DNA of 64,000 nucleotides, taken from NCBI RefSeq assembly GCF_003918875.1, contig NW_025766336.1, forward strand, positions 992,001 to 1,056,000, in the 5' to 3' direction. Positions 1 to 24,900 of this stretch are shown one piece after another. This DNA is from Haliotis rubra (taxonomy: Eukaryota). The notes beneath the pieces are model-generated. The model searched no databases. It had not been told where the DNA came from and worked only from the letters and a program-made list of their open reading frames with translations. Numbering within the stretch: position 1 is the first letter of the stretch; every line of letters starts with the position of its first letter. Both the position numbers and the translations under genes were made by a program.

Positions 1-316
1 ACGGGAACTTACAGTACTTTTGCTTCCTACATGGACCCTAGCTGGATTCTGTATATAGAAATTATCTTGCAAATGTAACAGTAAGTAAATATAGTCCCCC
101 AATGGAACAGCACAAAGCTAAGTTTGCCATTTCATCTAAGCTGAAACCAACGGAAACCTACATTACCCAGTATCCAATAGGCTTCCGCAACAGCGGAAAC
201 TAAGTCATTTTGCTATGAATGTTTCAGCGACCTGAAACTAAATGGAAACGCATAATGATAGTTTCAGTTGTAGAAACTTGACGGAAACCTAGATTTGTTA
301 GTTTCAGTTTTGTAAA

Positions 317-2243
317 TGTAAGACTTGGGTAATTGCTGTGGTTGCGTAACAATTACGTCTCAAGGTAAAAGGGATGGGCAAGTGTGTCTATTGCGCGAAG
401 TGCTCGAGTCAAAGATGACACAACACAACAAGACAGTAATAATATGTATTAAAATAAAAGGTCTTGGTTACAGGGTTGCAAATTCCGACTGCACAGTCCA
501 GGTGAAACCTAAAAAACAAGTTGGCTTGTTGTCACCTCGACAGTGCAGGCAGAAAGAGCCATTGTACAGATACAATAATGAAAATAGATAATAATCCGAC
601 TGATATATAGGATGTGACGACAATACTTATTAGGGGAAACAATATTATTAGAGAATATATAAACACAATATTGGAACAAAAGTATATGTGCATATATGAG
701 CACACAACCCCAAAGAGTATTTACATAAATAACTTTAATTATATAACCCAAAAGAATCGTCACACCCCTCCTATCAGAGGATTTACATGGGGCCCCACCT
801 GAGGTGAGGTGAAAGTCACAATAACTTTAATGGCCAATGGGAAGTATAAAAATACATATATATATATACACAAAGTGGGGAAAAATTTATACCCAACACA
901 TTTGGAATATATGGAAACCGGTTTGATTGATATAAACAATAGCCACGACAGGACACCTGGCCTGTACGACACATGTGGCTAAAGGAAATGGGGTATGACT
1001 GCCTGTTGGATGATCATACTAGTCAATATGAGGCTAGCTCCAACAGAATGTCAATACACCCAGTAGGTACACCACTTGGGGCTACCCAGAATGAACACCT
1101 AATTGTAGTAAAATACATTGATAAGATGTAATAAATGGATATTACATGATTTACATTACTACAATTTGCAGGTATATTATTGGCCATATAATATAATACA
1201 TTATATTATTATTGAATAAACTGGGACTTCACTTTCACATCAAGTGGGGAAACATACTAAAATATGATTGATATAGTTGCATGGTCCCGGTAGTCAATGC
1301 TATGTTAGGATAAACATGAAGCAGACGATGGACCCTAGTTTTGTTTACATCCGGTGCAGCCATTTTGTAATGGAGCCGGACGGGAGCCGGAGAATGCCGA
1401 GGAGAGCCGAAGACAGCCCAGGCTGTGTGCTGCTCAGTGGAGAAGTCAGCACTGGTCAGTGAGCATGACCGCCACTAATTGGTTCCAGATGATACCATGA
1501 TACTCTAACTGAGCACATGGTTTGGAAACCGGGACAGTGATACAGCCACTTTTTAATTTAGATTAAAATGGCAAAAGAGTTCTGTTGTTAGCAGCAACAA
1601 GTCGTAAATAAATGGAATTTTGAACTTAGCAATGAGCTAGAGACAATTTTGACTGGCAGGTCAAATAAGCAAATTAATGCTAAACACACAAAGTACTTTA
1701 CTAAAATGAATTTCTAGATGAAAATATATTACAATGAGTACATGTCATTTATTCTTGCCATCGAGTGCACGTTTGGACAGTCACAGATGAGTGACCTTTC
1801 GCCAGTTTGGCACAGCAAGAATAATTGATGACAGTGACCCAACACTTGTTTTAATTGTGATTTATCAAATTAAAAAATACATTAATTTAAAAGCCGCAGA
1901 TAATTACTTATCCTGCTAACAACATAACTATGCATTGGAATTTAATACAGAAGACCTAGTTGCAATATGGAAGCAAACTGAGGTTCTTACCTAAAAAACA
2001 AGTTGGCTTGTTGTCACCTCGACAGTGCAGGCAGAAAGAGGAAGATTTCAGGCTTGGGGGTCCCACGCTCCCTCTTGCCCCTGTCATGTGACAACATAGC
2101 CCCTGGGGATTGGCTAAAAAACTGTTGCTATGGAAACCATGGCACCAGTGCCTTGAGCCCCAGAACCCTATCAGATAACTGGTAAAGGGCAGGATATTGG
2201 GTTACTTGTGCAAGAGACTAGGACAAAATATCCAGCCTTTACA
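317..2243 (-). repeat. 3' LTR (full length, 1927 bp)
   Basis: Starts tgtaagacttggg and ends ccagcctttaca; matches 5837-6488 at both ends; abuts the PPT; contains a 52-bp internal direct repeat at 507-558 and 1989-2040. Confidence 0.93.
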
Positions 2244-4536
2244 CTCTCCCCCCCTTTAAGGAAATTTTGTCACCCGAACTGAAATTGGTAAATACAAATA
2301 CATGATTAAACAATGCTTCAGCTGAACAATACTTCTTCCCAAATGGATCCCAGGAAAAGAACCTAGTGCTTCGTCGCTGGCGCTGGGATCTACGAGGAGC
2401 TTCCGGCAAGGTCATGATAATAGTCTCCTCACAGGGGAGAGACTGGAGTGGCTCGTCAGCGGCAACTGGATCACTTATAGCAGAGTCCACAGAGTTCTCA
2501 GATAGGTCTGGCTCACAACCAGATGATTCTACCGGATCACAAGAAGCGATGAGCGATGTATCCTCATTGTCCGGATCTTCAGGCAGCCCATCTTCTCTCC
2601 CTTGTAGTTCTCCTGAGTCCCCACTCTCCATGGGTTCTGATGGAGCAGCTTTGGCTTCCACTGCAACCGTTTCACAGGTGAGGGGTGCTGCAGTGGTTGC
2701 CTCATTCTGCATACCGGGAACCACTTGGATAGCAGGGACTTCCTCTACAGTAGGTTGTGTGTATGGCAGCGCCTGTTCTTGTGGTTCAAAGGGTTGAGCC
2801 TCAGGGTTCAAGCTGCTAGTGGGTACAGCTCCAATAGGTTCAGGCTGTGGATACCATACATTGACAGTGTGTACTTCATCTTCAGAGGATTCCAAGATGT
2901 TCTCCGGTTGATGATTTCGGGCTCTGGATCTGGTGACAGGCCGCCTGTGACACTGGTTTCTTTCTGGTTCATCCATTTCTAGGGGCAATGAACCAACAGG
3001 AAGTAAGAGGTTGCGATGGTAAGTCTTTGAGGGCCCGTCTCCATTTTCTGGTCGAACAACATAGACAGGCAGTTCACCTTGGCGACGTTCAACAATGAAG
3101 ACTCCCGACTTCCATCTGTCAGCGATGTTATGTTTTCCTTTGACCCCAATGTTGCGGACAAGCACCCGGTCACCTGGTTCCAATACTGCTGCATGAACCT
3201 TTCGGTCATAGTAACCCTTGTTGCGAATTGCTGACTTTTGGGCATTCTCCCTGGCCACATGGAATGCAAACTGGAGTCGGTCCCACAGATCTTTGACATA
3301 CTGTTGAGGTCCTTTTGAAGTCCTGCTGTCAGGATCTGTTCCAAACACCATGTCTACTGGTAGGTGCGCATGACGGCCGAACATGAGGTAGTATGGTGAG
3401 TAGCCTGTGGTGTCATGTGCAATGCAGTTGTACGCATGGGCTAGAGGTCCAACATATTTTCTCCAGTCTTTCTTTTGGCTGTGGTTGAGAGCGCCGAGCA
3501 TATCCAAGAGTGTACGATTCATCCTTTCGGTCACACCATTGCACCTTGGGTTGTATGGTGACGTTCTTATTTTCTTGATGCCAGCAATATCGCACAACTT
3601 CTTGATAACTTTTGATTCAAAGTCCCGTCCTTGATCCGACAGTAGGTGCTGAGGGTAACCATAGTGACAGATGAGGTTTTCCCATAAAGCTTTGGCTACA
3701 GTGGTAGCTTTCTGATCCTTTGTTGGAACTGCCATTGCGTACTTTGTGAAGTGGTCCATGATCACCAGTACGTTTTCAAAGCCACCATTGTCTGGTTCGA
3801 TGGACAGATAGTCAATGCAGACTAGTTCAAGTGGGACAGATGGTAAGATGGCTTCCAGTGGTGCAGTTTCTTTCCTGGCTTTCCTCCTGATACATCTTTC
3901 ACAGTTTGAACAATAAGTTTGGATAGAGGTGGCCATTAATGGCCAGAAAAATCTCTGGCGGGCAAGGGATAAAGTGCTGTTGCTGCAAGGATGTCCAACT
4001 TGATCATGAACTCCATGAATTGCCTCCTTGCGATATTGTTTGGGGATGACCAGCTGTTGTCGTTCTATACCCTTGGCATCAGTGACCATTCTGTAGAGGA
4101 TGTCATCTTTAATTATAAGCTTCTCCAATTCTCGCAGGTAGACATGCATGTCGGGAGGGATTTTGGATGTCTCTGATTTGCATGGTCCCTCCTTTGACTT
4201 GATGTGGGAAATCTCCGAATCCAAGCCCTGCGCTGTTTTCCAATCCACTGATGACTGAGCTCTATCAAGGACTGTAGGTGGCTTCACCAAACTGTCAGGA
4301 ACTGCTTTCTTGGAACTGGACAGAGCTTCCACCAGAACAGGTTCTTCAGTGCTGGACATGACAGCGTTTTGAGAGTATGCCATGCATTTCTTTTCTTGCC
4401 TGCTTATTTCTTTGAGATTCCCTTGCTGCCTACCCTCTGGACTGCTGTGAATGCCATGACATTGAAGAATAGCCCGGATTGAGCATGAGGAACACTCCAC
4501 CAGATTCTGGAGCAGCGTGGGGTGTGCTCCAAGCAA
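2239..4536 (-). pseudogene. Gypsy integrase (HHCC zinc finger, DDE core, C-terminal domain), frameshifted from RNase H
   Basis: HDQVGH..CERC; PLELVCIDY; LSDQGRDFES; YNPRCNGVTERMNRTL; TGYSPYYLMFGR; PGDRVLVR. Confidence 0.92.
2244..2257 (-). promoter_or_regulatory. Polypurine tract
   Basis: Minus strand AAAGGGGGGGAGAG immediately before the 3' LTR. Confidence 0.9.
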
Positions 4537-5671
4537 TCAACCAGTCTATTCTTTCAGTGTCTTGTTTAAACTCTAGATCTTCTTCTTGAGATTCCTGTGG
4601 CAAGCGGCTTAAAGCATCTGCATCAGTCATCTGCACTCCTGGTCGATACTTGATGTTAAAGTTGTAGGCTGCTAGGGCTGCTAACCATCGGTATCCCATG
4701 GCATCAACTTTCGCCGACTTCAGGACATATGTAAGGGGATTGTTGTCTGTTACGACTGTGAATTCCGAACCATACAGGTAGTCATGGAACTTGTCAGTAA
4801 CAGCCCACTTCAATGCTAGAAATTCGCGCTTGTGTGCTGGATAATTTGCCTCACTTTTAGAAAGACCTCGGCTTGCATAGGCGATGACCTTCAGGCTACC
4901 GCATTGTTGTTGGTAAAGGACAGCTCCGAGTCCAGTGCCACTGGCGTCAGTGTGGAGTTCAAAAGGGGCAGACAGGTCAGCATAGCCTAACACAGGAGGA
5001 GTGGTTAGTTTTTCCTTGATCTTCTCAAAAGCTGTTTGGCATTTCTCTGTCCACTTATCCCCAAAAGGCGTCTTCAGGGTGAGGTTGTTCTTCCCAGGAG
5101 TTCTTCCGAGTTTTAGCATGGTCTTTCCTTGTTGGGCCCATTCTTCAAAGGCTACCTCTCCAGCTTTGATGGGTTTTGTACCAGAGAAGGTCTTCAATCT
5201 GAAGTAGCTGGATGAGGGACGATCCCAATTCACCAGCACCTGTTGTGGGTCTGGGCGTACAGTGCTACCGCTACCCACAACCCCAGCACTCGAGCTTGCA
5301 ACATTAGAGTCGCTAGCGGCTGGGGATTCTGAGTGGGCAGCAGCAACATCGTTAGCCGCCAGAACAGGTGTGGGAGTTGTTGGATTTGGTTTGATGGATC
5401 CGGTGCTGGTCGTAGCTGATGGAAGCTGTCGTAATAGCAGTTGGAACTCTTCCAGCATCTGCGACTTTATCGCCTCCATCATCAGGGCTGTCTTCCTGTC
5501 CAGGGCCTGATCTACTGCCCTGGCCACGACGTCTTCTAGAGAGGATCCTTCCCGAACCAAGTTCACTTTCATAACTTGATACTCCTCCTCTCTGATGAGT
5601 ACAGTGTCCCCAAGCTTAAGACAACATAGTGTCCAAGAGCTCAGAGTTCGTGAGCGAGGACATGTTGACAA
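4430..5671 (-). pseudogene. Gag (PNMA-like capsid start) fused in frame to the RT-connection/RNase H region; protease and RT core deleted
   Basis: YFRLKTFSGTKPIKAGEVAFEEW (PNMA-type Gag) is followed within ~25 aa by WTEKCQTAFEKIKEKLTTPPVLGYAD, LHTDASGTGLGAVL, YASRGL, KREFLALKWAV and VTDNNPL. No DSG/DTG or YLDD motif. Confidence 0.88.
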
Positions 5672-5817
5672 AAATAGGAGATGAGGTTGAGGTACTGAGA
5701 ATTCTTAGTTGACTAAGGCAACTAAGGGTAGGAGTATAGATACAAAATTATGCCTTATGTGCCAATGAGTGTATATCTTTGACCGTTGAGGGGTACTATG
5801 GGCGCTTGCGACACTTT

Positions 5818-5835
5818 GCCCCACGTTGGGCGCCA
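5818..5835 (-). promoter_or_regulatory. Primer-binding site for tRNA-Lys(CUU)
   Basis: Minus strand reads TGGCGCCCAACGTGGGGC, the classical 18-nt tRNA-Lys1,2 PBS, 1 nt from the 5' LTR end. Confidence 0.92.
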
Positions 5836-5836
5836 A

Positions 5837-6488
5837 TGTAAGACTTGGGTAATTGCTGTGGTTGCGTAACAATTACGTCTCAAAGTAAAAGGGATGGGCA
5901 AGTGTGTCTATTGCGCGAAGTGCTCGAGTCAAAGATGACACAACACAAAAAGACAGTAATAATATGTATTAAAATAAAAGGTCTTGGTTACAGGGTTGCA
6001 ATTCCGACTGCACAGTCCAGGTGAAACCTAAAAAACAAGTTGGCTTGTTGTCACCTCGACAGTGCAGGCAGAAAGAGCCATTGTACAGATACAATAATGA
6101 AAATAAATAATAATCCGACTGATATATAGGATGTGACGACAATACTTATTAGGGGAAACAATATTATTAGAGAATATATAAACACAATACTGGAACAAAA
6201 GTATATGTGCATATATGAGCACACAACCCCAAAGAGTATTTACATAAATAACTTTAATTATATAACCCAAAAGAATCGTCACACCCCTCCTATCAGAGGA
6301 TTTACATGGGGCCCCACCTGAGGTGAGGTGAAAGTCACAATAACTTTAATGGCCAATGGGAAGTATAAAAATACATATATATATACACAAAGTGGGGAAA
6401 AATTTATACCCAACACATTTGGAATATATGAAAACCGGTTTGATTGATATAAACAATAGAGACTAGGACAAAATATCCAGCCTTTACA
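5837..6488 (-). repeat. 5' LTR (652 bp, carrying a ~1.27-kb deletion)
   Basis: Near-identical to 317-942 joined to 2215-2243 through an AG microhomology; abuts the PBS. Confidence 0.93.
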
Positions 6489-7238
6489 TAAACTATGCGG
6501 AAACTCGCATTGTCTGTTTCCGGATACTGAAACCTAGCGGAAACCTACATTACCCAGTATCCATTTGGTTTCCGCAAGAACGGAAACCAAGTTATTTTTG
6601 CTGTGTAAGCTGTCGTTGGTGTTTCGCAACTAAAATTTCATCTGCCAGAACTCTAGATCGTTGGGCGCGTGGTTATCGTGTCCACAAAGCCGCTCTGTTG
6701 AATTTTGCATCTGTATCTTCTATCGCACACATCATTACGGTCTGCTATTGATCAGCATTAATGCGATCTGAAAGGATTATTGATAAAGAGCAAATATATT
6801 TACGCGGCCCCCATTATCTCTCTTTTCGCACTGTATGCCGTTGTTTATAGTTAATTTACCACCATAAAGAATAAACAACAAAACCAGTATTTATACACAA
6901 CGACAAGGCCGAAACACAGTTGTATGTTTACTAGGTCGATAGATGGAGTGTTGCATAATGTATAACTTTCTTAAAAAACAGTTACAGTTACAACTGTTCA
7001 GTTACTAACAACCGCATGGACGTTGAAACTGTTATATGTATCTATATCGTTCGTGTGAATGATCCTGCCGAAGAAGCAATATGCTCGTAATGTCTGTAAA
7101 GCTCTAAGTTTGTAATGTCTGAATCCGGGGTATTGGGTTGGTAAAATGAGAAGCAATGTGTTTAAGTGGGGTGGATGGGTTAAAACGTAGGAGAGACCCA
7201 TGTGGATGTAAGAGTAGGTAGACGAGAAGTGGGCGGGT

Positions 7239-8442
7239 GGGTACCTGAGAAGTTTGCGGGTTGGTTTAGTGGACAGCTAAGGAGTCGGTGGGTGGGTTAG
7301 CGGGTACCTGAGAAGTTGGCGGGTTGGTTTAGTGGATAGCTAAGGAATCGGTGGGTGTGTGGGTGGGTTAGCGGGTACCTGACAAGTTGGCGGGTTGGTT
7401 TAGTGGATAGCTAAGGAGTTGGTGGGTGGGTTAGCGGGTACCTGAGACGTTGGCGGGTTGGTTTAGTGGATAGCTAAGGGGTCGGTGGGTGGGTGGGTGT
7501 GTGAGCGGATACCTGAGAAGTTGGCGGGTTGGTTTAGTGGATAGCTAAGGAGTGGGTGGGTGAGTGAGTTTGTGGGTACCTGAGAAGTTGGCGGGTGGGT
7601 TTAGTGGACAGCTAAGGAGTCGGTGGGTGAGTCAGTGGGTACCTGAGAAGTTGGCGGGTTGGTTAAGTGGACAGCTAAGGAGTCGGTGGGTGGACGGGTG
7701 GGTGGGTTAGCGGGTACCTGAGAAGTTGGCGGGCTGGTTTAGTGGACAGCTAAGGAGTCGGTGGGTGGGTTAGTGGGTACCTGAGAAGTTGACGGGTTGG
7801 TTTAGTGGATAGCTAAGGAGTCGGTGGATGGGTGGGTTAGCGGGTACCTGAGAAGTTGGCGGGTTGGTTTAGTGGATAGCTAAGGAGTCGGTGGGTGGGT
7901 GGGTTAGCGGGTACCTGAGACGTTGGCGGGTTGGTTTAGTGGATAGCTAAGGAGTCGGTGGGTGGGTTAGCGGATACCTGAGAAGTTGGCGGGTGGGTTT
8001 AGTGGATAGCTAAGGAGTCGGTGGGTGGGTTAGCGGGTACCTGAAAAGTTGGCGGGTTGGTTTAGTGGACAGCTAAGGAGTGGGTTAGCGGATACCTGAG
8101 AAGTTGGCGGGTGGGTTTAGTGGGTAGCTAAGGAGTGGGTGGGTGGGTTAGTGGGTACCTGAGAAGTTGGCGGGTGGGTTTAGTGGACAGCTAAGGAGTC
8201 GGTGGGTGAGTTAGTGGGTACCTGAGAAGTTGGCGGGTTGGTTTAGTGGACAGCTAAGGAGTCCGTGGGTGGGTGGGTTAGCGGGTACCTGAGAAGTTGG
8301 CGGGTTGGTTAAGTGGACAGCTAAGGAGTCGGTGGGTGGGTTAGTGGGTACCTGAGAAGTTGACGGGTTGGTTTAGTGGATAGCTAAGGAGTCGGTGGGT
8401 GGGTTGGTTAGCGGGTACCTGAGACGTTGGCGGGTTGGTTTA
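7239..8442 (+). repeat. G-rich minisatellite, ~19 units of ~55-75 bp
   Basis: Unit GGGTACCTGAGAAGTTGGCGGGTTGGTTTAGTGGATAGCTAAGGAGTCGGT(GGGT)nTAGC with a variable number of GGGT. Confidence 0.97.
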
Positions 8443-8532
8443 GGATAGTAAGTAGATGAGAAGTGGACAGGCAAGTTAGTAGGTAGTTGAGAAGTATGTG
8501 GGTGGGTTAGTTGGTAGGGTAGCTTAAGAGCG

Positions 8533-8847
8533 GATGGGTTAGTAAGTAGATGAGATGTATGTGGATGGGTTAGTAAGTAGATGAGATGTATGTGGATAGG
8601 TTAGTAAGTAGATGAGATGTATGTGGATGGGTTAGTAAGTAGATGAGATGTATGGGGATGGGTTAGTAAGTAGATGAGATGTATGTGAATGGGTTAGTAA
8701 GTAGATGAGATGTATGTAGGCGGGTTAGTAAGTAGATGAGATGTATGTGGATGGGTTAATAAGTAGATTAGATGTATGTAGGCGGGTTAGTAAGTAGATG
8801 AGATGTATGTGGATGGGTTAGTAAGTAGATGAGATGTATGTGGATAG
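8533..8847 (+). repeat. 31-bp minisatellite, ~10 copies
   Basis: Unit GGGTTAGTAAGTAGATGAGATGTATGTGGAT. Confidence 0.96.
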
Positions 8848-9419
8848 GTGGGACAAGAAGTAGAAGTGTGTGGATGATTTAGTCATGAGTCAAACTACAC
8901 CAACACAAGTAAGAGAAAATGATAATAATTTACATATTACTTAAGAGTCATCCATTTAGCTATTACATCCTTTCCCATGTGTTACGATTACAGATTTGAG
9001 ATACAATTTGGGAGTCAACCAAAACGTATCGGCTATAAAGTGGATCTTTGTATGGGAATAATTTTGTTCCTCGAAAACAAAACATCACAAAAATATATTG
9101 TCCCTTATCTACAGGCTGTTTTCACTACGTGGCCTAACTTACACATAGCGTGTGTAACCTCTCTGACGATTAACGTCATAGAAAACAAAACATTTTCGTC
9201 ATTTATGGCAAGCCATTTATAACAGTGGATAAGAAACGTTATGTACACAAGGGTATAAGCATTCCTCCAAAGGAGAGTTACAAGGAAGAAAATGTGTTCA
9301 TAGTAACTGTTATTTACAAGTTAAGATGAGGATGCAGGTTTAATGGTAATATCCAATGGGGTTAAGAGTCTTTCTGGAATGAATACAGGTTTGTAATGAC
9401 ATCTGAGCGTAGAGGTGTA

Positions 9420-11480
9420 GATCACACGTTTCTGGGGTGACAGGGGGTCTGCAGGACAACAGACATGCCACCAACTGATTTGGCGTGTAGTGCTACACTT
9501 ACTTCTGGCGGACTGACGTCAATGAGGGAGCACCACAAAATGTCTCTCTGGCACTGGTAGCTGGGACAGTGACAGATCACATGAGTCGAGAAATCATTAT
9601 AATGCTGCCCACAGTTTGGGCAATCACAACACACCAAATCGCACACATGTTGACAAGAAGGTTTGCAGCAGGCTTCAGCCATGGGTCGGAATTCGCCACA
9701 TGCCATGCCATGTGGGTGGAGGTCTCAGATTTTATCCACATAAAATGATTAAAATATTTTTCCCACTTCGATTGACTTGGGAATGTCCTTGCTTTCAGGA
9801 AAGCGTTCAGATAATTGGTTAAGTCATACTTGTCCAGTATAGTGCATATGTCGGGCACATAACCCAACTTCAACTTGGTGTGGGTATGTCTGAGTAGCGA
9901 TAGGCGGGTTATGAACAACTTTCTTGGGAGAAATTCTGCTTTGGAATTACATAACTGTCCTAAGAAGAACAGCTTTCTGGTATCAATTGATGCCTCAATG
10001 GCGTTCCAACCGACAAGTGCGTTACAAATACAGGTCCGTGTGTTACTTGGGAAACCCTGAGCAATTTTCAGACAGAATCTTTGAGCACGCTCGAGGGCAG
10101 TGACTTCTGATTTAGAAAGCTCCGTCCACAGTTCACACCCATATAAAGCTTTGGGTAAGCGGGTTGTTCTTATTACTTTGAGGCTTGTCAGTGTGTTGAG
10201 TCCGTTTTGGTGTACACCAGACTTTATAAGAGCCATTGCCGTACCTTTTAATTTTCTACATGCTTCGAGAGTTCTGTCCCATGAGTTGAAACCAGCATCC
10301 AGTTGTATCCCCACATGTGTTATTTCAGTACAGTGTGGCAGGGATTTTCCATAAAGCGTCACTTCAGAATCGCGGGCCTTTGTTTTACTGAAGGTAAGTA
10401 TTTTACTCTTAGTAGGGGAAAACGTAAATCTCCACTGAGAGCTGTATCTCTCACAAGTGGACAGAAGATCCTGGATGCCACCGATAAGAGGGCTGATTAA
10501 AGTGATGTCATCAGCCTGTGTTGGGGCTGTTACAATTGACATCGCAGACGACAGCTCCCGTCTTGCTTGCAGATAGATTTCTCAACAGTTCATCAATGTA
10601 CACTATATTTTTTTTTTTATAAGTAGAACTTGGCAGATAAAATACTGCCCTGACGAACCCCTCTATATAAAGGAAACCACTGTGATTGCACATGATTAAT
10701 CAAGACACTATACTTGTCATATCGATGTAGGCGTTATCTATTAGTCTCCACAGGGAGTCCTTGATTTTCAGCTTTTTCAACTTCAAAAGGAGGTCAGGAT
10801 GGCAGACTGTATCAACGCTATAGAGCTGTCGAGGAATGCTACATGGACAGCATCAGATCTCTCCGTGCAGTGGACTGCAGTCTCCTGGACCATAAATGAT
10901 GTATGCATTGATGATATGCCTTTCTGGAAACCAAACTGTTCATGGCTGTTCATGAACTTCACACATTACCTGTGGCATTCGTTTGCCTATAATAAGTTCA
11001 AATAGTTAAAACACCACTGGCAGAAGGGTTATACCTCTGTATGAGTCGACTGCAGATCTCGACTTGTTTCCACCTTTGAATATAGGTATTACAATGCCTC
11101 TTTTCCAGGAGTGAGGTATGTAGCCCGATTTCAGTACGAGATTAAACAGGACAGAGAGACAGCGTGATAAACTTTACCTCCATACTTCAAATGTTCATAT
11201 GTGATACCATCTTCACCAGCAACTTTGTTGTTTTTAAGAGTTCGACACAAATCATATACTTCTTGGGGCGTTGTAAGCAGACCGTCAGCTGTAGGTTGTT
11301 GTCTGGACAACTCGTCTCTAATGTCGGCCACTTGTTTGTCGATCTCGGCTTTAAAGTTTTCGTCATAGTGGTCTTCTGTAACATTACTGTAGACATGTCT
11401 CAGGTGATCTGCCATTGTTTCAGGTAATTCTTTAGCGTCGCGAATCACTCCGTTTTTAGTTTTGAGGCTTGATATTTGTG
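9420..11480 (-). mobile_element. 5'-truncated, frameshifted non-LTR retrotransposon (LINE) ORF2: RT domain plus C-terminal zinc knuckle
   Basis: LKNNKVAGEDGITYEHLKYGG (RT domain 0); YRGITLLPVVF; QFGFQKG; PTQADDITLIS (YADD-equivalent); WRFTFSPTKSK; LYGCELW; CPNCG..HVICHCP. Confidence 0.88.
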
Positions 11481-11913
11481 GCCAGGCTGGTGCAGTCATA
11501 ATTGGCAGTTTCATATGTTTACCCTTTAGCCCGACCCCTAACACGAGTTCGTTATCTCGCAGTTGATAGCAGACACTGAACCTTGGCAAATCCGGACTTG
11601 CTTTATTTAGAGCTTCAGTATTGCAGAAAGGGAAATATCGCGACTAACTGCCACTAATGCCACATTCAGTTTGAATGTTCTCGAGTGTTTTACCACGATG
11701 TTTTCAGGTCGCATCACGTGACAGCTTTTACTAACTTTTCGTTGTGACATAACTTCACCATATTACTTGTTTCATGATATTTGTATCAATCAATTCTGTT
11801 TAAGTAATAAGTTAATATTATACAAAAGAACCGTGATATCACTATGCCCTATCATAGGAAAGATTACAATTTTATGTCTGTTGATGCAGTAATCAACAAT
11901 ATGGAAGTAAATG

Positions 11914-21900: not shown

Positions 21901-24900
21901 ACGTGCAAGTAAGCTTAGCGCATGGAGTGCCGTTTTCCCGATACTGGCGGTGAGGCGCCCGTCTGTCCATGACCTGGAGTTAAACTTTAATAATATAAAT
22001 TATTACCCCTATAATTTGAGTAGTTCAATAGTAAATATCCAACAATCAATGGGGGCCTACCAAGACGTTTACCGTTGTTGAACTAATAATTTTAGTAGCT
22101 TTCTACTGATGCTTACCAGATGTTAATTCACTGGCAGCTTGTTTATCGACAAGCAATCTCCTGTTTTCGCTTTAGTGTCAAAAAGCTCAGAATCAAGCTA
22201 CAAAACAGATAAGATTTTGATCAAATTTGAGAAATATATCAGTTTGAAACAGAGATCACTTTGAAAGAATGGATGCAGGTGTTGATATTAGCTATCAGAC
22301 CATCACATGGCTTGTTCGAGACTCATTTGATGCCAATAGCAAGCCATTGAGGTGAGCTAAAACATTCAAACCTGATTGCATTTCAACCTCTCATGTCTTT
22401 GTGAATCTCCGGAATGGATATGGACTTATTCTTCATACTCTATTAAATTAAACATTTGAATAAAAGAACATGATTAACCATATCAACATATTAGGTACCA
22501 CATAATAACAATTCGAATATTTGTTTCTATTTTGTGAGCACATGTGTCTTATCCAAGTAAAAACTGTTTAAGCCAGGATACATTATTTGTCATCTGTGTT
22601 GTGTATTAATTTTGCAATAATGACTGACTGACTGAGATTGGTTTTTACGCCGCTTTTAGCAATATTCCAGCAACATCACGGCGGGGGACACCAGAAATGG
22701 GCTTCACACATTGTGCCCATGTGGGGATTCGAACCCGGGTCTTCGGCATGACGAGCCAACGCTTTAACCACTAGGCTACCCCACGGCCCCTTTGCAATAA
22801 TGATCATGATGAAGTTAGGTTTGTATACTCAAAACAGAAACAACCCTTAAAACAAGGTCAGATGAATGTTAGTTGAAATATGGACATGCACAGTCATAAT
22901 GAAAGCAAGCAATATTCTGATTATTATAATTTTTATTGATTAAGCTATCATTTGTTCATTCAGAAGGGGGACAGTGTATTTTTATCTGCACAATATCATG
23001 TTGATGGATCGCATCACCCTTTCAAGTACAAAATTAATCAACAGCAAAGATACATGTTAATGTGGCTGCAGATCTTCACTGTATATTCTTTGTTATGATT
23101 TCCAGTTTCTCATTTTTTTATTTTGATTTTGCCAAAAAAAGTCAAGATCATAGTAAAAAATATGCAAATCTTGACTCCTCAAAGAAAAAACAATCCTCAT
23201 TTCAGTACTTTCGAAGTTGGAGAGTTGTTACCCTGTAATAAAGTAGGGCTGCAGGGTTTGACAAACTTGGAACTTACGTGTTCATCTACAGCACTCTTCT
23301 TTTCAATTTGGAGTACAGCACTTTGCAGTGACAACATTGGAGTTTATCAATCACAGCATTCAGCAATTTTCCAGCCACATGACAGCAGCCTGTAAATATT
23401 CAAGTCTCGACCAGACAACCCAGTGACTGGGGTACTGTTTTCACAATTGGGATACGATGACATGTGGCAATCAAGTCAGCGAGCCGGACTACCTGATCTG
23501 TTAGTGGCCCAGATCTTCATGGGTATTGAGGATCAGGATCCAAATGCCCACATATTTGTGTTGCTTGAACTATGTATTTACAAGGATATCTATGACTCAG
23601 TGTTGTGGCATTATTGCAGTTGAATTGTCAGCATCCGTGTCAAGCAAATCACCTCTTACCATCAACTATGTTTCTTTCAGAGAAGTTTGTGATTCCCAAC
23701 CAAGAGAAGAGCACGCACAAATGGTACCACAGACGATTCCGCCGTGTTCCCTCATTTGATGAGTGTGATGTTGATGATCCTATCTGCATGTATGAAGCTG
23801 AGGAACAGTATCGCCGAGACAAGTAGGTTAACTCCTTCATCAATATAAAGTACACTTTTAGCATCCAATTACATTCACTGAATGTTGTCTGGTAACTTGA
23901 GCCTTACTGAGATGGTAACAATCATGTAGAATTGGTTGAATTGCTTGCTGTTCTATCTCAGCATGCTAAGTCCTTGTCATAGCAAAGCAAAAAAATGAAA
24001 TGATGGGGTCATATCAAGTACTTAAGGTGCACACCACAGGTACCATACATTGTCCCATAACCTGAAAAGCTGAACAAACTCTTGCAGCCTATGTTTACTG
24101 TCAGTGTTGATGTCTCAGCCCTTTTTTCTTTACATTTTTAAAAAATTTGGTTTGAGCTGGTCAGGGCTCCAGATAAGGGTCGTATAAAAAATATGCAAGA
24201 TACGGTAGGAAATAGTTTAGAAAACGTAGCAGATACGCACCACAGCAATGGTGTACGGTCTTAGAATCATTTACAGACGTATTTATCTGAAAAAGTATTG
24301 TTTTATTGTTTATTGACAAAATTATCTGGAGCCCTGCCTGGTGCTCAACATATGTTCTGTATCTAGTGTTTTTTTCATCTTCCACCTTGATCATGTTGAT
24401 CACCTCCTTGCACTGTAAACACAATTTCCTGAGGAACGACCTGAGTACTGAAGCTCTAACTTGATGTGTTTATTCCCTCACTGACTTGAGTTTGGTCACC
24501 CCTGTCCAAGCGATTCCAAATTTCCATATTGCAACAGCAAATAATGTCATCATATTCAGTCATTTTTGTTACAAATTGGTTTGACTTGTGGATTTGTTTG
24601 GTTAGTTTTGGAATTTAATAGATATGTAAGTTTTCCTTTTCTGTGCATTATATATTATTTAACCTAGTATAGACCATGCTGCAAATATCTCTCATGTTGC
24701 ATATTTGTCTCTCTTTAATATTACAATCCTGAGAGAGCTTAACAGGGATCGAAGGCAGGTTTTGTGCCATAAATATCAATTCTGAAAGTGTTTTGTGATT
24801 GAGAACTACATATCTGGTGAGTGACAGTGAACTGGCATTCTGTTGTTGATTTTTTTGGACTTAAGAAAGTTAGTTGAAATAACCTTGTTAGTGTAAAATA

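Follow-up and report, generated by a model that had tools for sequence, protein, structure and literature searches.

At the DNA level, an exact direct repeat bounded by a predicted transcription start site and a predicted splice junction is a lineage-level design of the long terminal repeats (LTRs) in a clade of Ty3/Gypsy elements, one of which lies in the 64,000-nt stretch of Haliotis rubra DNA analysed in this study (the window). In that element the two copies of the repeat supply the donor and the acceptor of a predicted intron inside the LTR, and layouts of the same kind are found, in unrelated sequence, in two relatives.

The repeat in the LTR of the window element

The element spans 6488..317 on the minus strand and is of the Ty3/Gypsy type. 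The features to which the text refers are given below; the U3 function is putative and the poly(A) signals are motif matches.

6489..6492, minus strand: target-site duplication TTTA, 5' side
6488..5837, minus strand: 5' LTR, 652 bp, keeping only repeat copy 2 (6026-6077)
5818..5835, minus strand: primer-binding site (PBS), 1 nt past the 5' LTR, downstream of the acceptor
4430..5704, minus strand: frame in which a gag fragment (beginning of a PNMA-type domain) runs into RNase H
2239..4536, minus strand: integrase frame (H2C2 and rve domains)
2244..2257, minus strand: polypurine tract (PPT), abutting the 3' LTR
2243..317, minus strand: complete 3' LTR, 1927 bp, TG...CA
2041..2243, minus strand: putative U3, 203 nt, with CCAAT at 2113-2109 and an E-box at 2090-2085
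1989..2040, minus strand: repeat copy 1, the predicted exon 1 (R, 2040-1991, 50 nt) plus GT
1985..1990, minus strand: splice donor GTAAGA, ranked first of 136 GT sites in the LTR
509..1990, minus strand: predicted GT-AG intron, 1482 nt, 37% GC, 28 ATG
1941..1946, minus strand: rival poly(A) signal ATTAAA, 44 nt past the donor
507..558, minus strand: repeat copy 2, R' (558-509) plus GT, supplying a branch-point-like TGAC (A at 532), a T tract and the AG acceptor
317..508, minus strand: LTR part past the acceptor (rest of R and U5), 192 nt, no ATG
483..508, minus strand: sequence right past the acceptor, pairing with the repeat and closing a long hairpin
445..450, minus strand: candidate poly(A) signal AATACA, 58 nt past the acceptor and followed by a GU-rich stretch
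313..316, minus strand: target-site duplication TTTA, 3' side

The repeat first noticed in the preliminary description is indeed perfect over 52 nt, 507-558 being identical to 1989-2040 within the 1927-bp 3' LTR, and a third identical copy was found at 6026-6077 in the 5' LTR. It is not due to chance, since the longest exact repeat in shuffled window LTRs (n = 200) was 13 nt and, among 28 same-size tiles elsewhere in the window, one held a longer exact repeat (68 nt), the other 27 holding none above 25 nt. The edges are sharp in the window and in two relatives described below (L001 and L005), with 9–14 of 40 flanking positions matching, and no decayed extension of the 52-nt repeat past its edges was found.

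On the minus strand copy 1 ends in ...TTTTTTAG/GTAAGA, i.e., TAG/GTAAGA (the slash marks the end of the copy or the junction), and copy 2 ends in ...TTTTTTAG/GTTTCA, the shorter tail of which is TTGTTTTTTAG/GTTTCA. These ends had been read beforehand as a strong donor and as an acceptor followed by a weak donor, respectively, and the ranking of sites is in agreement: the donor of copy 1 is the best of the 136 GT sites, the acceptor at the end of copy 2 is tied first among 79 AG sites, and the GT after copy 2 ranks 49 of 136 as a donor, according to a crude score that uses human frequencies. The intron length of 1482 nt proposed for splicing from 1990 to 509 was reproduced on the minus strand. 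By crude motif scores, the GT donor, branch point, pyrimidine tract and YAG acceptor of a U2-type intron are all present, and 1990..509 is predicted to be a candidate U2-type spliceosomal intron.

The CCAAT box previously located at 2109-2113, upstream of copy 1, was found again, and the U3 segment 2041..2243 gave no match to TATAWAW. Copy 1 starts at the C+1 of a TCT-type initiator, a motif matched at 3 of 1917 positions of the window LTR and absent from copy 2. An Rfam scan of the window gave a sole match, tRNA-like, at 22717-22785, and none in the LTR. The predicted spliced leader contains no ATG in 416 nt (5.4 expected from composition) versus 28 in the intron; no such avoidance was seen in L001 or L005. 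The computed length of strong-stop DNA in the window family is 242 nt if the RNA is spliced versus 1724 nt if it is unspliced. Because the PBS, which we take to match tRNA-Lys, lies downstream of the acceptor, spliced RNA would keep it and could be primed.

Two further features were observed within the predicted intron. At 799-798 (minus strand) a second AG directly abuts a GT, the donor ranking second of 136 and the acceptor being tied first; this AG/GT is also kept in the window 5' LTR and, judged by its motifs, is possibly a recursive splice point. An interpretation of the same site as an older copy of R was rejected, the upstream sequence being unrelated to R and 292 of 500 shuffles scoring as well. 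At 1482-1344 (minus strand) a CCAAT at 1482 is followed by a CpG- and GC-rich block (1443-1344) with a YY1-like motif at 1365, a possible enhancer or second promoter by its motif content.

The window copy is defective, with two internal deletions. Protease and reverse transcriptase (RT) are missing, RNase H precedes the integrase, and the gag fragment matched Pfam PNMA at E = 0.021, below the cut-off, and a PNMA-gag protein in a pairwise comparison at E = 9e-7. The 5' LTR is without 1272 bp matching 2214..943 (junction 6458-6459), which comprise the promoter, copy 1 and most of the intron, and since the upstream repeat has been lost from this LTR the window copy cannot run the cycle proposed below in cis. 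The missing segment has 2-nt microhomology at its ends and no transposon termini; the deletion was also considered as a splicing product and this was rejected, because its ends are not GT-AG. Five substitutions and two small indels distinguish the two LTRs; the copy is thus young, and an unchanged 52-nt repeat is expected anyway (P = 0.67). For this reason, the window copy alone says nothing on ongoing homogenisation of the repeat.

An 85%-identical segment is found on both flanks of the element (144-211 and 6531-6598), which indicates insertion into an older repeat with an internal duplication. Elsewhere in the window, adjacent tandem arrays with 63-bp and 31-bp units occupy 7239-8443 and 8475-8849, broken frames at about 9577-11640 (minus strand) resemble, by eye, a LINE-type reverse transcriptase remnant, with no Pfam match on the scanned piece, and a dispersed repeat family (families D3, D5, D6 and D9) is present in several copies and both orientations at 17848-62405.

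Recurrence of the repeat among relatives

A protein search with the window element gave 1728 matches; the named ones among the 120 listed were mostly fish Pol proteins, and the homologues listed carry RT, RNase H and integrase domains. An exact 30-nt search for the window repeat in a genome contig collection gave 0 matches, and no second copy of the family was obtained from it. A profile scan of the genome contigs detected 28 loci with Gypsy integrases, of which 26 were used; the 28 loci lie inside bacterial MAG records, which we infer to be host contigs binned into bacterial genomes. A quick tree was built from 39 rows, namely 23 loci, the window and 15 proteins (L025, L027 and L028, with short matches, were left out), and in it a 22-row clade with an SH-aLRT of 95 comprised the window, L001-L005, L007 and the 15 proteins, with fish and coelacanth Pol among them. 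Two of the six in-clade loci (L002 and L007) end inside the LTR, leaving four that could be assessed (L001, L003, L004 and L005), and in all four Pfam PNMA was above the cut-off. Integrase identity to the window was 51% for L001 and 45% for L005.

L001 has a 708-bp LTR between PPT and PBS with an exact 104-nt repeat, the copies being 213 nt apart, and L005 has an exact 61-nt repeat, 352 nt apart, directly before the PBS. In both, copy 1 ends in CAG/GTATGT, and blastn showed no similarity among the window, L001 and L005 LTRs at E < 0.01. The preliminary description had held that its reading would fall if the duplication were private to the window copy; at the lineage level this is not the case. 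In each element no GT site of the LTR outranks the donor that closes copy 1 (1 of 136 in the window, 1 of 41 in L001 and 1 of 56 in L005), and in L001 and L005 the copy-2 acceptors come tied third and fourth of 30. Outside arrays, the 26 loci and the window contain 81 exact repeats, counted by strand. Four of these have YAG/GT at their end, each belonging to the units described here (the window unit enters a second time, between its two LTRs), and none of the other 77 does; with tandem arrays included, 8 of 1430 exact repeats end at YAG/GT.

An initiator +1 stands at the start of the repeat in copy 1 of all three elements and in copy 2 of none. The motif is of the TCT class in the window and BBCABW in L001 and L005, against a background of 44/1917, 14/698 and 9/669 positions (1.3–2.3%), both classes having been allowed after the data had been seen. 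The U3 up to copy 1 measures 203 nt in the window and 220 nt in L001. R and R' show 0 differences in 215 nt across the three elements (upper bound 1.4%), and the copies are separated by 109–1430 nt of other sequence (1430 nt in the window) with unrelated flanks. In L005 a pyrimidine tract precedes the first AG of the repeat and the LTR is disrupted upstream, which means that the 5' edge of the repeat might instead be an acceptor; an additional exon farther upstream in this locus was considered and dropped, with an 8-nt match only and no GT after it. For L001, several copies may have been collapsed into one contig during assembly.

Candidate LTR introns were also detected in the other two assessable loci. 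L003 has a 2129-bp LTR with a candidate intron of 1471 nt (donor 1 of 204, acceptor tied first of 94), and L004 a 597-bp LTR with one of 116 nt (donor 2 of 25, acceptor 1 of 33). No exon-1 repeat was found in either LTR, the right-anchored match being 3 and 4 nt. Candidate LTR introns are thus present in 5/5 assessable clade members and the exact repeat in 3/5, from which it follows that the repeat is not the sole way to keep an LTR intron. The forks of the quick tree do not separate one origin of the repeat from several. The out-group LTRs of L009, L015, L018, L020 and L024 have no such repeat by eye, and the scripted scan covered the 26 loci.

Other features of these loci were recorded. L004 has two extra sense frames between pol and the 3' LTR (9252-10496), the second of which matches Pfam Histone (E = 2e-30) with an H3-like sequence. 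In the long 3' untranslated region of L001 an 87%-identical duplication (5798-5879 and 6483-6564) includes a PPT-like stretch near 6160-6187; it has diverged, whereas the LTR repeat has not. L005 has a strong acceptor at about 6180-6212, directly before the gag ATG and downstream of the PBS, which suggests, from its position, a separate spliced message that could not be primed. In the short out-group LTRs of L009, L018, L020 and L024 a donor-like GTRRG was seen by eye shortly before the PBS, a retrovirus-like layout in which splicing would remove the PBS.

Three explanations that involve no recurrent copying were weighed against these data. An assembly artefact or chance might be suspected from the two internal deletions of the window copy and from relatives that are host-like contigs binned in bacterial genomes; however, the same layout occurs in three independent records of unrelated sequence, copy 2 is present in both window LTRs and the target-site duplication is intact, which makes this highly improbable. 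We also consider it quite improbable that transcription starts at R', or from a second promoter in the supposed intron, of an ordinary LTR with a long U3, in which the upstream copy serves as a repeated regulatory element or the 1272-bp segment was inserted into the 3' LTR alone. This would accommodate the block with the YY1-like motif, the hairpin of the repeat with U5, which is present at R' without splicing, and the absence of the upstream copy from the 5' LTR, but copy 2 has no initiator context in 3/3 elements, the U3 up to copy 1 is 203 and 220 nt in the two elements measured, the missing segment has the ends described above, and the donor at the end of copy 1 is left unexplained.

The third explanation is a single event, either one duplication of an AG/GT segment of the Rogers/Hellsten type or one mis-primed reverse transcription, by which the intron was born, or its acceptor replaced, once; unspliced RNA would replicate, and the copies would be identical through recency. 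Duplication of an AG/GT segment can create a working intron (PMC3265369), identity is expected in the young window copy, and L003 and L004 keep LTR introns without the repeat. The explanation is nevertheless improbable: unrelated LTRs would have had to undergo such an event three times, separately and recently, each time exactly from initiator +1 to the donor and with 0 of 215 nt differing, and the copies are not in tandem, lying 109–1430 nt apart between unrelated flanks.

A probable origin in reverse transcription of spliced RNA

A repeat with these boundaries would be left behind if cDNA made on a spliced 5' end were extended on an unspliced template, and this is very probably how it arose; this judgement is common to the cis and trans versions below, with a small share for one-off mis-priming. 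In retroviral chemistry, strong-stop cDNA extends from the PBS to the cap and is transferred by R homology (PMC7197481). In the cis version, towards which we incline slightly, the unspliced template would be the 3' LTR of the same RNA. The chances seem to us even that, in a branch of animal PNMA-gag Gypsy elements, the RNA is 5'-spliced and 3'-unspliced and exon 1 overwrites the acceptor end in each cycle. One 50–100-nt sequence would then be first exon, R region and splice acceptor at once, and the relatives without the repeat would represent an earlier state, the intron being kept by early transfer or by unspliced RNA.

The LTR would accordingly be ordered U3, exon 1 (R), an intron ending in a copy of exon 1 (R'), and the rest of R and U5, with transcription starting at the first base of R, as the initiator motifs suggest. 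In the 5' LTR splicing would join the capped 50-nt exon to what follows R', so that the RNA would begin with a short leader closed by a hairpin and would keep the PBS. The RNA would traverse the whole intron of the 3' LTR and end tens of bases past R', the 3' intron being retained in at least part of the molecules, which is the weakest step. The 242-nt strong-stop cDNA would match R' and the sequence that follows and would land there; RT would then copy the intron, R and U3, both new LTRs would regain the intron, and R' would be rewritten from exon 1 in every round. Such rewriting would make the repeat start at +1, stop at the splice junction and stay exact, and the reuse of exon 1 as R' would require that exon 1 itself finish with a branch point, a pyrimidine tract and AG. 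The element might gain a short strong-stop DNA, intron-linked expression as argued for Penelope, or the removal of 28 upstream ATGs, the last of which fits the window and not L001 or L005.

Folding was predicted from energies on several chosen lengths. The repeat together with the downstream sequence, which is also the predicted spliced 5' end, forms a long hairpin in the window (558-430) with z = −4.28 (0/200 shuffles), and the repeat with the intron start gave z = −1.08. In L005 the hairpin begins at the first base of the repeat, and z was −2.74 (97 nt) and −1.88 (136 nt) versus +1.61 and +0.86 with the intron start; in L001 both arrangements fold about equally well. In a scan for duplex partners of exon 1, no stretch was stronger than the 35 nt past the acceptor in the window element (0 of 304) or in L005 (0 of 53), and few were in L003 (5 of 317); the pairing test failed in L001 (17 of 35) and L004 (11 of 45). 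Retention of the 3' intron might be achieved through loss of cap-dependent first-exon definition or through competition by the acceptor abutting the donor. A structural reason for it was not found by U3 folding in any of the three elements with the repeat: there was no masking of the donor by U3, the observed value being equalled or undercut in 7, 8 and 4 of 15 shuffles, in a thermodynamic prediction that is weak at 15 shuffles each.

In the trans version, which is possible though somewhat unlikely, the strong-stop cDNA from a spliced RNA would switch onto the R' and U5 of the 5' LTR of a co-packaged unspliced RNA, the intron of the partner would be copied, and the jump to the 3' R would follow. 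The replicating RNA would be unspliced and might end soon after the first R, and R' would be rewritten from exon 1 by two-RNA recombination in some rounds only. The same boundaries and the same exactness are predicted, a PBS downstream of the acceptor fits as well, and no splicing difference between the two LTRs is needed. On the other hand, a 1724-nt strong-stop DNA would be required in the window family, and pairs of spliced RNA would shed intronless progeny. Of the preliminary proposal that the intron is rebuilt through R and R', the core is supported independently by the recurrence in L001 and L005, and retention of the 3' intron in the same RNA, with an end past R', is one possible route to the repeat, as a switch in trans would leave the same DNA trace.

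The position of the poly(A) site would separate the two versions. No clear AATAAA next to R' had been seen in the preliminary description; an AATACA lies 58 nt past the acceptor and the rival ATTAAA at 1946, and the predicted intron of the window contains 12 poly(A)-like hexamers. Cleavage directed by the ATTAAA would cut the RNA before R', and the AATACA at 450 fits the cis version. The trans version is consistent with the ATTAAA and with the AATAAA that L005 carries inside the repeat itself, and a 3' end at either place would break the cis version. Against the trans version, L001 has no poly(A)-like hexamer before the acceptor, the sole ones in its LTR lying 22 and 32 nt past it, and both AATAAA of L004 are likewise past the acceptor.

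Comparison with known systems

The window element shares with PNMA-gag Ty3/Gypsy elements (Barthez) the TG...CA LTRs, a 4-bp target-site duplication, PBS, PPT and an RNase H that precedes the integrase. A published table places PNMA under Barthez (PMC3670739), and LTRs longer than 1 kb occur in some Barthez elements (PMC11117352). The element probably belongs to this lineage, an assignment made through the literature, as the tree holds no named Barthez reference. The word 'intron' does not occur in the text of the Barthez survey, and the consulted part of a zebrafish transposable element survey has nothing on LTR introns. A literature search gave no account of a copy of exon 1 at the acceptor of an LTR intron (supplements, Repbase reports and most subscription papers were outside its scope), and it is unlikely that the design has already been described.

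Other LTR retrotransposons with internal introns and spliced RNAs are Ogre, EVADE/Copia and Cer1 (PMC12786077, PMC7197481, PMC3315495). They differ in that splicing yields subgenomic messages, and for EVADE and Cer1 an unspliced genomic RNA is described. A spliced-leader analogue in Cer1 of C. elegans was considered and dropped, as the consulted text describes its 8-kb RNA as neither spliced nor trans-spliced. In the Rogers/Hellsten segmental duplication two AG/GT copies likewise give donor and acceptor, but the intron is the duplicated sequence and decays later (PMC3265369), whereas the window copies stand well apart, match exactly and have the predicted start site as a boundary. With 1430 nt between the copies and 9–14 of 40 flanking positions matching, the window intron does not fall among those born by tandem duplication.

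HTLV-1 and foamy virus replicate from unspliced RNA. The HTLV-1 LTR has an R-U5 intron with donor and acceptor inside the LTR, and foamy virus has a donor in R (10.1101/2023.01.28.526022, PMC3694450); a duplicated R is not described for either in the parts of these sources consulted. U1 binds the foamy virus donor in the 5' LTR, and in the 3' LTR this donor is concealed; it is a precedent for one donor being used differently in two LTRs (PMC3694450), although masking by U3 of the foamy type was not seen in the folding of window-type elements.

Intron loss was the original proof of an RNA intermediate (PMC12786077), and the layout described here would be a concrete way round the expected loss of introns spliced from template RNA. 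It bears on how retroelements keep introns, as Penelope-like elements do, the significance of whose intron retention is called unknown in the part of the source consulted (PMC8557442). If the proposal is true, an element could profit from a first intron and from a short strong-stop DNA even with kilobases of regulatory sequence in its LTR. The repeat would also be a DNA-only marker of start site and splice junction that can be screened for in any repeat library. More speculatively, de novo gain of 5'-UTR introns in PNMA genes has been claimed on the premise of intronless progenitors (PMC3257199), and this premise would deserve a second look if PNMA-gag elements carry introns in their LTRs.

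Closest in their working, by analogy, are intron retention in Penelope-like elements and engineered split-intron retroviral vectors. Penelope-like elements likewise keep a spliceable 5'-UTR intron near the start site, in the pseudo-LTR, through transposition (PMC2377424, PMC8557442), and intron-linked expression has been argued for Penelope (PMC2377424); in the consulted parts of these papers no copy of exon 1 at the acceptor is reported. They use a GIY-YIG endonuclease, not an integrase and tRNA-primed strand transfer, and the window element, with its rve integrase, true LTRs, PBS and PPT, is not one of them. In split-intron vectors the copying of LTRs during reverse transcription builds a working proviral intron (PMC3182074). 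These vectors are artificial and single-round, the intron removing the packaging signal so that further replication stops, as described in the part of the source consulted; unlike theirs, the intron of the window element would be rebuilt in each round.
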